IMG/VR virus record: IMGVR_UViG_2711768037_000005
Coordinates: 3,040-67,039 of that record
Length of the DNA stretch: 64,000 bases
Origin: a virus
Lineage: Duplodnaviria > Heunggongvirae > Uroviricota > Caudoviricetes
Reading direction: 5' to 3' (one strand)
The notes under the pieces were generated by a model. It ran no database searches, was not told the DNA's origin, and saw only the letters and a program-made list of their open reading frames with translations. The translations under genes were made by a program, and so were the position numbers. Below are positions 47,164-50,002 of this stretch, in pieces; position 1 is the first letter of the stretch, and each line of letters starts with the position of its first letter.

Positions 47164-47769
47164 TTGATAAAGAAGATGATTGCAGCCGAAAAAATCAAAA
47201 AGCGAAAGCGCGACAACTCTCTTCGTGACCTCTGGAGAACACCTGACTGGCTGTTTAATGCCATTCAACGTTATCTGGGAGTGACATTTGATGTTGACGT
47301 TGCCTGCAATAAGGACAATGCAAAGCTGCCTATTTTCATAGGCGTTGAGCGCGATGCTTTGAAATCTGAATGGGGGCAGCCAGGTACAATTGCCTTCCTC
47401 AATCCACCCTACTCCAAAATTTCCCCCTGGATTGATGCGGCTATACGTGAGCAGGCTCGCGGAGTTACAACAGTGATGCTAATTCCTCAATCCCTCGATA
47501 CAAAGTGGTATGAGCGTGCAACAGAGTGTGCGAATGAGACGATTATTCTGTCTGGTGGCCGCGTAGCGTTTGTCGAGCCTGACGTCAATCTGGGTCAGGT
47601 AGAAGTAAACATCAACCCCGGTGGCAGTATGCTCGTTGTTTTTCGCGGATTCTGTCAGGACGCTGGGCACTCTATAAGCAAGATCCCTTTGGACGTCATG
47701 AAAAGTCTGGGAGGGTATGATCCTGCGAATGTGATCAGGAAAAAAAGACCATCAAAGAAGGCAGCTTAG
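47164..47769 (+). CDS. dam: phage-type DNA N6-adenine methyltransferase (Dam-like)
   Basis: 201 aa; catalytic NPPYS motif (FLNPPYSKISPW) with WRTPDW motif upstream; typical small phage Dam. Confidence 0.75.
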   Translation: MIKKMIAAEKIKKRKRDNSLRDLWRTPDWLFNAIQRYLGVTFDVDVACNKDNAKLPIFIGVERDALKSEWGQPGTIAFLNPPYSKISPWIDAAIREQARGVTTVMLIPQSLDTKWYERATECANETIILSGGRVAFVEPDVNLGQVEVNINPGGSMLVVFRGFCQDAGHSISKIPLDVMKSLGGYDPANVIRKKRPSKKAA

Positions 47770-47791
47770 TTTGTTCTGGCGTCTGTAATTA

Positions 47792-47847
47792 GCCTGCTTC
47801 TGTATATAAATAACTACATATTAATTATTAATATACGGAAGCAGGCT
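47792..47847. repeat. 56-bp imperfect palindrome, copy 2 (GCCTGCTTCTGTATATAAATAA / TTATTAATATACGGAAGCAGGC); terminator-like
   Basis: arms read directly; followed by TGTTTTGTATC; related to element at 1070-1120. Confidence 0.6.
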
Positions 47848-47953
47848 GTTTTGTATCAGAGACTCCAGACCTGAACATCACTACAGAATCCACTAGAACC
47901 CCTTCCCAGACGCTTTAAAATCGATTTTATGAACCACTTTAAGGAAAACTAAC

Positions 47954-48184
47954 ATGCCATACCCGACCAATGTTGTTGCGCTCGTAGAGAGCGATTTTCT
48001 GGCTAAGGCTCGTGAAATGATGAAAGATCGCGAGCAGGCTTTCAACTTGTACGAATGGGCAATTAAGTGCTTGCATCTTGGGGAGCATCGCGAACTTGTT
48101 GAACAGCTTTTAGGTGAGTTGATCAACGAGGTGTTTGCCTTGAATGTTCAACTACATGGTCGAGAAAATAATCAATCGAAATGA
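47954..48184 (+). CDS. hypothetical small protein
   Basis: 76 aa ORF with RBS AAGGAAA. Confidence 0.4.
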   Translation: MPYPTNVVALVESDFLAKAREMMKDREQAFNLYEWAIKCLHLGEHRELVEQLLGELINEVFALNVQLHGRENNQSK

Positions 48185-48703
48185 TAGATAAGTACAAACT
48201 ATTCATAAGATAAATTGTAAGTGCTAAGATCTGATAGTTTCCAGTCGTAGACTGGAGACTCGACCTGATGGGTGGGGGTAAGCGTCACTGGCGTCAGGTT
48301 TAAAAAAGCTCACTACCAGCGTAGAACCGGTGCCGTTTAGGTGTCGGGAAAGGGGGAACCAAAGTGAGCGGAGACAAGGGTCACTTTATGATTGTCGAGT
48401 CTGGGGTGTTTCGAGAGGTTGAATCCAGTACTCCCCTTCATAAAGTGTGGGAAGATCTCGGTTCTGGGGTGCTGTCATCCATAACTTCCCAAGTCTAAGC
48501 TGGCAGTAGACTTAGACCATAACTTTTCAGGTTATGAAACGACCAGGTTGGTGAGAGATTTTTATACTCACCTCCCTGGGAGAGTATTACCTGAAAAGAC
48601 AACCTCTCACTTCGTTCGAGGTGAACTTCACTCACTTCGTTCGTTCAGTTCAGGTTTATAAAAACCTGTTCTGGGAAGTAATTTGTTTATTTTAATAATT
48701 ATT

Positions 48704-48728
48704 AACACGCACGCGTGTGCGCACGCGC
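48704..48728. other. 25-bp alternating pyrimidine-purine tract (ACACGCACGCGTGTGCGCACGCGCG), Z-DNA-prone, in rnhA upstream region
   Basis: strict Py-Pu alternation read directly; GC-rich; partly palindromic around ACGCGT. Confidence 0.6.
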
Positions 48729-48768
48729 GAGGAAAAAAATCGGCGCGGCGCTTGATTCAGGAGTTTAT

Positions 48769-49359
48769 ATGACGACGAAGACACCAGCCCGATCGCAAGC
48801 AAAAACTCGCAAAAAAGCCAAAAACAAAAATTCTCCCCGCACCAATCCCACAACGCCTGTCGTAGAGTTCAATCCCCAGCTGAAAACCGTGAAAATCTTC
48901 AGTGATGGCTCTTGCCTTAAAAATCCGGGTGGCCCGGGCGGTTACGGTATCGTTCTTCAGTATCGTGGAGAGGAACGCGAGTTCTCAGATGGTTTTCATA
49001 GCACCACCAATAACCGCATGGAGATGATGGGGGCACTTATCGGGCTGGAGCGTTTGAAATATCCATGCAACGTTATTTTGCACTCTGATAGCCAGTATCT
49101 GAAAAACGGCATGACACAGTGGATGAAATGGTGGAAACGCAATGGATGGATGACTTCTGACAAAAAACCGGTAAAGAATGTTGATCTGTGGAAGCGTCTG
49201 GATGAGGCCGCAAGTCGACATAATGTTCGCTGGAAGTGGGTTAAAGGTCACGCCGGGCATCGTGAAAATGAAATATGTGATCGACTCGCGAAGATCGCAG
49301 CTTTTTCAGCAGCAGATATGCCTCACAAGAAAGATATTGGTTTTGTTTATAACAAGTAG
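48769..49359 (+). CDS. rnhA: ribonuclease HI
   Basis: core [26 protein letters not shown]...[16 protein letters not shown]...[15 protein letters not shown]...[20 protein letters not shown] collinear with E. coli RNase HI; basic N-terminal extension; start at ATG 48769 with RBS AGGAG (ORF track extends to 48715). Confidence 0.85.
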
Positions 49360-49507
49360 TAAGTAAGTGTTTACTCATCACTTTAAATCATGTATCTTAT
49401 CGGCGTCAGGATGACAATGTGTCGGTAAGACACAGTTCCAGGATGGAACAAGAAAGGCGGCTGGCAATCGCCAGCCGCAACTCTTTCTGACACTGGATGG
49501 GGTCCAT

Positions 49508-50002
49508 ATGGCACGTCAAACCTATTTCACTTCTGCAACTAAACGTCCTCGTTCTTTACGTCAAATTTTGGCCGAATTATTTAGCGGTCGTGTTATGTCA
49601 CGTCTTGATGAACTAGAGACTACCGTTAGGTTGCTGAATGAACGTTTAGATAATCAAGCGTCAGTTGTTGCGAACGTGGGGGCGATTGTTGCCTCTGGTT
49701 CTTCACGCGAAGCGAAAAGTACACGGCCTTTAGTGAAGGAGAAAAACAACAAGGACAGTTCGAATGGAAAATTTTCAAAGAAAGAGGCTGAAACCAATGG
49801 CCTACGTTCTCATTATAGTTTCACTGGCGACGGTAGCCGTTCCAGCCGGCCAGAGCCTTTTGATGCCGGATTCATCCATCACCACACCTCCGTCGACGAC
49901 AATTACCACCACTCCAGTAGAGCGTCCTGTCACTCTGGATGGGATGACGGTGGATGCGATACCTCAAGTTCATCCAGTTACTCAGGATCATGTTGTGATT
50001 AA
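49508..50002 (+). CDS. hypothetical protein (C-terminal half low-complexity; extent uncertain)
   Basis: 164 aa ORF; overlapped in another frame by ORF 49764-50015. Confidence 0.35.
   Translation: MARQTYFTSATKRPRSLRQILAELFSGRVMSRLDELETTVRLLNERLDNQASVVANVGAIVASGSSREAKSTRPLVKEKNNKDSSNGKFSKKEAETNGLRSHYSFTGDGSRSSRPEPFDAGFIHHHTSVDDNYHHSSRASCHSGWDDGGCDTSSSSSYSGSCCD

Follow-up and report, generated by a model that had tools for sequence, protein, structure and literature searches.

A previously undescribed large structured RNA encoded by SSU5-like phage-plasmids of Enterobacteriaceae

The 64,000-nucleotide (nt) stretch of DNA analyzed here (the window) comes from an SSU5-like phage-plasmid of an E. 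coli lineage, with about 98% identity to phages PhiR41_1 and CMS-2020a and 97% identity to phage Cyrano. Within its DNA-metabolism module, a region free of open reading frames (ORFs) is placed between an ORF of 76 amino acids (47954-48184, plus strand) and rnhA, whose ATG stands at 48769. We find that positions 48237 to about 48690 of the plus strand encode a large structured RNA of about 450 nt that has not been described before. The RNA is conserved, is encoded on the plus strand and has a multi-domain fold behind a conserved promoter-like site. It constitutes a new RNA family, large and structured, whose carriers are phage-plasmids of a widespread group, and this unannotated RNA with its complex fold is the most conserved non-coding segment that SSU5-like phage-plasmids possess. 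An original prediction, made by eye from the sequence, had proposed either a structured non-coding RNA or an elaborate regulatory leader for this region; covariation, a strand asymmetry that depends on G-U pairs, a conserved promoter of its own and the absence of any Rfam match now support that proposal. The underlying observation that no ORF of at least 60 amino acids occurs on either strand was confirmed for 48185-48714.

Fold, covariation and conservation of the RNA

Folded as plus-strand RNA, the region has a minimum free energy of -168.4 kcal/mol, compared to -136.2 ± 5.7 kcal/mol for dinucleotide shuffles (z = -5.7), and none of 100 shuffles was as stable. The minus strand folds at -140.4 kcal/mol (z = -3.9). 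The RNAalifold consensus of 24 distinct sequences comprises 138 pairs in 18 helices. Pairing is possible in 99.4% of cells, 11 pairs carry changes on both sides, and the observed values were matched by none of 500 shuffles; when the partners were slid along the consensus, pairing fell to 36-48%. On the minus strand the consensus helices are 88.6% paired versus 99.4% on the plus strand, with G-U pairs making up 10.9% of cells, and we assign the RNA to the plus strand because the asymmetry rests on these G-U pairs. By the generic criterion for a structured RNA, compensatory pairs were thus found above both the shuffled and the slid controls, on one strand.

Several helices are invariant within the SSU5 group, and distant relatives were therefore sought through the upstream 76-amino-acid ORF. 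The loci obtained in this way were L185 (82% identical), L182 and L183 (67% over 300 nt) and L184, which gives no blastn hit. A covariance model of the central domain (model R1, 48382-48522) recognized L185, L182 and L184 with E values of 1e-36, 7e-26 and 3e-15, respectively. With these homologs included, 26 of the 46 pairs in the central domain changed on both sides, all six helices were supported, and 96.9% of cells were paired versus 33-48% after sliding the partners, in an alignment (A4) that was itself fitted to the covariance model. A second model (R2, 48523-48681) recovered a long hairpin, built from different sequence, in L185 and L182, the last subdomain being variable. Compensatory changes, for which the original prediction had suggested looking in a comparative alignment, are found both in the SSU5 group and among its distant homologs. 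That other helices stay invariant over roughly 20% neutral divergence suggests sequence-specific contacts beyond pairing.

The fold begins with a 5'-terminal hairpin (48238-48259) that is hypervariable in sequence and kept in structure: every lineage builds the same hairpin from different sequences, and three of its six pairs show compensatory changes. The perfect hairpin CCAGTC-GTA-GACTGG noticed by eye belongs to it and is located exactly at 48241-48255. In the 5' domain (48262-48370), which follows, a long hairpin rich in G (48262-48299) is joined by an A-run linker to the helix GCUCACU/AGUGAGC (48308-48314 with 48363-48369), and this helix encloses two small hairpins. Compensatory pairs in this domain fall at alignment columns 34:70, 35:69 and 83:141, and the stem of the G-rich hairpin, CCUGAU/GUCAGG here, reads GCAGAU/GUCUGC in L182 and GUUACG/CGUAAC in L184. 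The predicted pairing of AGCTCACT (48307-48314) with AGTGAGCG (48363-48370) is present, and AGCTCACT/AGTGAGC is backed by compensatory changes. A long-range pairing had also been proposed between GGAGACTCGAC and GTCGAGTCT. Both sequences exist, the former at 48254-48264 rather than 48253-48265 and the latter at 48394-48402, but the pairing is rejected: changes in the 5' arm are compensated within the local hairpin (alignment columns 33-71).

The central domain (48382-48522) contains six helices together with the conserved unpaired segments UUGUCGA, CCCCU, GAUCUCGGUUC and CAUAAC. Adjoining it is the long hairpin (helices 14 and 15, 48523-48598), which contains GGUGAG/CUCACC. The predicted pairing of GGTGAG (48550-48555) with CTCACC (48567-48572) is therefore present and forms part of the consensus, but it is invariant within the SSU5 group. 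An equivalent hairpin of different sequence occurs in L182, and by eye L184 also has a different-sequence hairpin at this site, for which the model match is not significant (E about 0.4). The 3' subdomain (48608-48681) includes the duplicated UCACUUCGUUCG and a covarying terminal hairpin (48650-48668), and is closed by ACUUC/GAAGU, after which a U-rich stretch follows; in distant homologs this subdomain is variable. The reported duplication of TCACTTCGTTCG was found as two copies, at 48607-48618 and 48632-48643. A conserved alternative-pairing switch around the duplicated UCACUUCGUUCG was considered and was not reproduced in the distant homologs. Overall, four of the five pairings picked out by eye are part of the consensus structure, and two have compensatory support within the SSU5 group.

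Conservation was assessed in an alignment of eleven relatives from E. coli, Salmonella (SSU5), Klebsiella, Enterobacter and Citrobacter. Positions 48260-48680 are 94-100% identical between lineages, compared to 76-89% in flanking coding sequence. The 60 nt upstream of this core are only 55-63% identical, yet a GTGnTAnnAT block and the pairing of the 5' hairpin are kept. Poor conservation in otherwise syntenic relatives had been named as the outcome that would speak against a functional RNA; the region is instead the most conserved part of the locus. Since small ORFs within the region are broken by frameshifting indels of 1-2 nt in relatives, the constraint does not act on a protein. An example is the 44-amino-acid ORF at 48364-48498, annotated in Cyrano, which carries 1- and 2-nt indels in Klebsiella, L045 and L079/L080. 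No codon-position pattern was detected in the conservation of the region. The Cyrano 'hypothetical protein' called inside the RNA (CYRAN_81, L004:3562-3696) and the upstream extension of the SSU5 RNase H coding sequence into the non-coding region (SSU5_090, L002:3832-4596) are probably mis-annotations; in the window, a GTG at 48715 yields a similarly over-long rnhA ORF.

The RNA did not resemble any family we searched. At gathering thresholds, an Rfam 15 scan of the whole window returned only tRNAs at 8.9-9.2 kb, and a permissive scan of 47700-49500 (E up to 10) gave only noise within the RNA. The families without a match include RNase P, tmRNA, 6S, RNAI, C4, GOLLD, ROOL, OLE, raiA, HEARO and riboswitches, and ARAGORN found no tmRNA. 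These scans agree with the earlier impression, formed by eye, that RNase P, tmRNA and 6S motifs are missing. No description of the RNA was found in the literature on pHCM2, SSU5 and phage-plasmids in connection with non-coding RNA, RNA sequencing, replication origin or RNase H. A cluster of four tRNA genes (Asn, Tyr, Thr and Ser) is carried by the phage-plasmid at 8919-9743.

Gut bacteria host the SSU5-like phage-plasmids, which are often met in clinical E. coli, Klebsiella, Enterobacter and Salmonella (pHCM2 of S. Typhi is one of them), and some carry resistance genes. PLSDB holds 722 records related to the window element, and the RNA core is present in 687 PLSDB plasmids, mostly from Klebsiella (310), Escherichia (195) and Enterobacter (88), with further carriers in Salmonella (49, among them pHCM2 of S. 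Typhi CT18), Citrobacter (24) and Cronobacter (10). It also occurs in 12 phage records and in Buttiauxella and Kluyvera assemblies. Among 5,426 complete E. coli genomes the core was found in 232 (about 4%), where the RefSeq annotation beneath the matches shows nothing or rnhA only. A contig of Buttiauxella gaviniae (L012:4782-5163) bears a 5'-truncated copy that begins at the equivalent of window position ~48362 and is fused to unrelated sequence; this copy is probably a remnant. A reduced 51.6-kb Cronobacter plasmid, considered as a natural deletion experiment, was uninformative.

Promoter, flanking sequence and the downstream slot

The promoter upstream of the RNA (48202-48230, plus strand) comprises a -35-like TTCATA (48202-48207), a 17-nt spacer and an extended -10 element, TGcTAAGAT (48222-48230). 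The GTGnTAnnAT block at 48222-48230 is kept in every lineage and is present also in the divergent L182, L184 and L185. Judged from the position of this element, transcription would start at about 48237. The promoter is preceded by an operator-like element (48187-48200) that reads GATAAGTACAAAC here and forms a perfect palindrome, GGTAAGTACTTACC, in Salmonella and Enterobacter relatives; in most lineages the palindrome-like motif before the RNA promoter has the full form GGTAAGTAnTTACC. The pattern TAAGTA-N1-5-TWAC occurs seven times in the window versus 0.73 expected, at positions 1207, 4641, 16263, 29081, 48189, 49360 and 54335. Intergenic spaces or their margins hold most copies of this TAAGTA-N-T(T/A)AC motif, and an extended -10 hexamer comes after several of them. 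P1 has dispersed C1 operators, and by analogy the recurrent motif is probably the operator of a prophage repressor, in which case the RNA would be an early, derepressed product. Beyond the copy at 49360, the leader (49384-49500) of the ORF at 49508-50002 contains several GGA motifs and a strong hairpin (49457-49478), and has a weak CsrB-like match (17 bits, E 0.04) that lies far under the gathering threshold.

Past the last closing helix lies an A/U-rich spacer (48682-48704, plus strand) whose sequence is not conserved (63-64% identity) and which may hold the 3' end of the RNA or a processing site. In the interval from the RNA to rnhA, A/U-rich spacer included, we found neither a canonical intrinsic terminator nor a convincing sigma-70 promoter for rnhA. 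The spacer gives way to a G+C-rich tract in which purines and pyrimidines alternate strictly over 25 nt (48705-48729). The tract exists as originally described, one position downstream of the earlier placement at 48704-48728; it had been viewed as the end of the structured region, and this view did not hold, as the tract lies outside the folded core and is a conserved motif of varying length. It is the longest alternating tract in the window (the next longest measures 15 nt) and recurs, at 14-29 nt, in the flanks of 54 of 58 distinct relatives; L182 retains only CGCGCG. Alternating over at least 12 bp and rich in CG and CA/TG, 48705-48729 is Z-DNA-prone by sequence only. The tract runs into a purine run (48729-48739, plus strand), GAGGAAAAAAA, made up of GAGG plus an A-run. 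Across relatives the A-run varies between 4 and 10 nt, and even L182, L184 and L185 retain CGCGCGAG(G/A)(C)AAA. In L009, L012 and L014, where different sequence follows the A-run, homology ends 3 nt past it, after AAAAAAATCG.

The gene that usually follows, rnhA (48769-49359, plus strand), encodes an RNase HI of 196 amino acids (Pfam RNase_H, E 1e-44) behind a CAGGAG ribosome-binding site (48758-48763). The region had been introduced as lying upstream of rnhA, and this tie proved incidental. At least 80% of the RNA core is present in 686 PLSDB records, and at least 80% of a query reaching from 5' of the 76-amino-acid ORF through rnhA in 603. In L011 (3655-5267) JukAB stands in place of rnhA; in L009 (3835-5517) the RNA is followed by the gene for a HEC-06/GmrSD-type type IV restriction enzyme and an IS110 element; and in L182 (3329-4416) the next gene encodes an unknown protein of 200 amino acids that is not RNase H, followed by a Tad2-like gene. 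Conversely, L076 and L077, from another element, have rnhA without the RNA. The RNA is thus kept regardless of the gene that follows it. Since rnhA is absent, replaced or reordered in relatives that keep the RNA, the stretch from the RNA to the operator-bearing promoter at ~49360 is a variable accessory slot, of which rnhA is the usual occupant and not a part of the RNA element. The space just 3' of the RNA is accordingly a cargo hotspot, and the RNA marks the edge of a slot that exchanges defence systems such as JukAB and the GmrSD-type enzyme.

A sister clade of 30 Klebsiella plasmids (for example K. oxytoca pCAV1015-111) carries a different structured non-coding RNA of about 480 nt in the same slot. 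This type-2 RNA (L094:3262-3745; also L095, L097-L100 and L172-L181) stands after the homologous small ORF and, as a rule, ahead of an RNase H gene; the gene next to it in L098 and L099 (L098:1787-2233) is on the opposite strand. It folds at -183 kcal/mol (z about -5), and the consensus from six sequences has 154 pairs, of which 20 are compensatory. A purine-rich run and then a break in homology occur at the point analogous to that of the first type. No type-2 locus matched Rfam. Homology between the two types was considered and rejected, given that the local alignment score equals that of shuffles and that neither nhmmer nor model R1 finds anything. In relatives from Morganellaceae the small ORF is present without a comparable RNA. 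Two such phage-plasmids, from Moellerella and Xenorhabdus (L096:3890-4260 and L186:3270-3650), share a non-coding stretch of about 390 nt 3' of the small ORF at 72% identity; as a third RNA type this stretch was dropped, as it folds no better than shuffles (z = -0.3).

The 76-amino-acid ORF (phrog_5343) is always directly upstream of the RNA. In IMG/VR, all 80 loci with this small ORF have an adjoining RNA, 71 of type 1 and nine of type 2. Its product has no Pfam match and is predicted by AlphaFold to be a three-helix protein (predicted local distance difference test, pLDDT, 85), for which no PDB fold matched with E below 4. The idea that it is a Rop-like RNA-binding partner is unsupported by this predicted fold and by the lack of a significant PDB match. 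Upstream of the ORF, 3' of the Dam methylase gene, a long A/T-rich perfect hairpin (47791-47853; AGCCTGCTTC...GAAGCAGGCT, then a T-run) is probably a terminator that divides the Dam unit from the unit of the 76-amino-acid ORF and the RNA; the same hairpin gave spurious microRNA matches in the permissive Rfam scan. Between this hairpin and the ORF, a conserved non-coding stretch (47855-47930) in which CCAGAC is repeated and the motif CCAGACGCTnTAnAATCGATTTTATGAAC occurs is a possible regulatory site. The DNA-metabolism module around the RNA encodes an epsilon-like exonuclease, Dam methylase and RNase HI, and elsewhere the window encodes DnaE, ribonucleotide reductase, ThyA, an SbcC-like ATPase (beside a metallophosphoesterase) and a Rep3-type RepA (Rep3/IncFIB replicon).

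Possible functions of the RNA

We tentatively favor, with less than even confidence, an RNA that acts by itself, binding protein as a scaffold or decoy and so functioning as a ribonucleoprotein or sequestering RNA. It would be transcribed from its own extended -10 promoter, under an operator-like palindrome common to early and replication-gene promoters, and hence be made with the early, derepressed program. The 5' hairpin would protect its start, and the RNA would end or be cut in the A/U-rich spacer past the last closing helix, with some transcription probably continuing into the variable slot that usually holds rnhA. Such an RNA might serve the replication or the counter-defence side of the life cycle, rather than act as an antisense regulator or as a leader of rnhA. 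We favor this proposal because of the size and complexity of the RNA, its invariant helices, its 5' hairpin and its closing helix followed by a U-rich stretch, and because it is independent of the downstream gene and no antisense targets for it were found in the window. Across the whole window, eight complementary 11-mers were found versus 7.9 expected from shuffles; complementary 8-mers numbered none to 48691-48900 and one to 49357-49560, versus 1.4-1.5 expected. The unrelated type-2 RNA in the same slot of 30 Klebsiella plasmids provides a parallel case.

Several points weigh against a stand-alone RNA. The start site, the 3' end and the very existence of a discrete stable RNA species are read from sequence features, and with no canonical terminator before rnhA the RNA could exist only as a long 5' leader. 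The neighboring 76-amino-acid protein offers no informative fold match, and in Morganellaceae elements it occurs without this RNA. The conserved (YR)n-CGCGCGAGG-A(n) motif 3' of the RNA is not explained by an RNA that acts alone. Finally, the search for antisense targets covered only the 64-kb window, a part of the whole element.

A cis-acting leader would fit the lack of a terminator. In this case the RNA would be the 5' part of an early transcript and control expression of the slot gene, usually rnhA, by transcript stabilization, antitermination, processing or an R-loop that forms co-transcriptionally at the 3' flank, rich in G+C and in purines, and is sensitive to RNase H. The RNA does share its strand with rnhA, with neither a canonical terminator nor a convincing sigma-70 promoter in between, rnhA follows it in most records (603 of 686), and RNase H follows the type-2 RNA as well. 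Autoregulation by way of a structured leader is frequent among ribonuclease genes, rne, rnc and pnp being examples. Nevertheless, we consider a leader function rather unlikely, given that the RNA is kept when JukAB replaces rnhA, when a HEC-06/GmrSD-type gene follows or when the next gene is unrelated (L182), that the type-2 RNA persists where the next gene is read from the opposite strand, and that L076 and L077 have rnhA without the type-1 RNA. Moreover, a length of 450 nt with six or more independently covarying helices goes far beyond the needs of known leaders, and the RNA has no complementarity of 8 nt or more to the rnhA start region.

The alternative that makes most of the 3' flank is a replication pre-primer similar to RNA II of ColE1. 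The RNA would fold, form a persistent RNA-DNA hybrid at the alternating tract, be cut by RNase HI at GAGGAAAAAAA and prime the leading strand of a repressor-controlled (lytic) origin, so that sequence past the priming site is free to vary. The geometry is suggestive: the promoter, with its -10 at 48225-48230, lies about 490-500 nt upstream of the purine run at 48729-48739 (ColE1-type origins have about 500-550 nt), the tract at 48705-48729 comes directly before that run, and GAGGAAAAAAA resembles the GGAAAAA switch site of ColE1. Conservation of the module stops 3 nt past the A-run in relatives with replaced cargo, CGCGCGAGRAAA persists in lineages with a diverged spacer, and after the type-2 RNA, too, come a purine-rich run and a homology break at the analogous point. 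The setting in a replication module (DnaE, epsilon-like exonuclease, Dam, RNase HI) under an operator-controlled promoter fits as well, and GC skew is positive over the whole window, compatible with unidirectional replication. This is also the sole model that explains both why the module ends at a G+C-rich tract and purine run and why it is sited beside RNase HI. Against these points, there is no gene resembling the antisense RNA I, no conserved minus-strand promoter inside the RNA and no RNAI match; the tract has no G-over-C skew and there is no G-run; the lengths of the tract (14-29 nt) and of the A-run (4-10 nt) vary, with CGCGCG alone in L182; and the GC-skew profile does not switch at the site. 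In addition, a Rep3/IncFIB RepA replicon is already present on the element, the sequence that follows is coding and so shows no evident primosome assembly site, and the element's own rnhA is dispensable. On balance we regard a pre-primer as improbable, if worth keeping in mind.

We would nonetheless venture a broader speculation, although we ourselves lean against it. The slot after the 76-amino-acid ORF in SSU5-type phage-plasmids might be reserved for a large, 'ornate' RNA, of which at least two unrelated versions exist, with a job that would be new for a temperate-phage RNA: it would either prime a repressor-controlled lytic origin in the manner of RNA II or be an early decoy or scaffold that disarms or organizes host factors beside a defence and counter-defence hotspot.

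Two further explanations appear very improbable. An antisense immunity RNA of the P1 c4, P4 CI or N15 CA type, processed from a leader and targeting a downstream antirepressor operon, would suit a phage-plasmid whose SSU5 and Enterobacter relatives have an antirepressor or Rha-type gene in the early operon headed by the RNA, and the hypervariable 5' hairpin could be its specificity determinant; but the RNA measures 450 nt, compared to about 70-80 nt for those RNAs, has no Rfam C4 match and shows no excess complementarity to downstream leaders or elsewhere in the window. A DNA-level element (an origin, packaging or recombination site, or a protein-binding array) with incidental pairing would account for the many helices that are invariant across lineages and for the alternating tract and A-run, which are typical DNA structural motifs, but not for a strand asymmetry that depends on G-U pairs or for changes on both sides of 26 of 46 central-domain pairs at identities down to 67% or lower; by eye there are also no iteron-type direct repeats, no GATC clusters and only a DnaA-box-like site with two mismatches.

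Comparison with known RNA systems

Bacteria have few large structured RNAs of this kind of length, and every discovery of one to date has led to new research. In the present case the host is genetically tractable and phages SSU5, PhiR41_1 and Cyrano are in culture, so that function is directly testable. The closest parallels in general character are GOLLD, ROOL, OLE and raiA. Like these, the RNA is several hundred nt long and has many helices, multi-way junctions, strong covariation and highly conserved unpaired nucleotides, and like these it had no known function at discovery; with GOLLD and ROOL it also shares carriage by a phage-type element. It has no sequence or structure match to any of the four in Rfam 15. 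It further differs in being found in phage-plasmids of Enterobacteriaceae rather than in prophages of Firmicutes, in not being located beside tRNA genes, and in its place downstream of a probable operator-controlled early promoter, where it borders a defence and accessory slot.

Other known RNAs are similar in arrangement rather than in character. RNA II of ColE1/pMB1 is a folded transcript of about 500 nt that extends from its promoter to a G+C-rich segment followed by a purine (GGAAAAA-like) run, a layout that the transcript described here may share. Both have a variable 5' stem-loop and a conserved body, and RNase HI, which takes part in that system, is encoded next door here. The phage-plasmid RNA differs in lacking an antisense RNA I, detectable homology and a G-run near the putative switch site, in the presence of a Rep3 initiator replicon and in the varying length of its 3' motif. 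The c4 RNA of P1 and P7, CI RNA of P4 and CA RNA of N15 resemble it in standing at the 5' end of a phage-plasmid early operon, and they are released by processing, as may be the case here; the RNA described here is about six times larger, and neither complementary targets nor a match to the Rfam C4 family was found for it. The 5' untranslated region of rne and the put antiterminator RNA of HK022 share a position between an early promoter and genes that could be controlled, with no terminator between. Compared to these, the RNA is much larger and more complex and shows no homology, and it is kept when the downstream gene is replaced; the type-2 RNA is retained even ahead of an opposite-strand gene.

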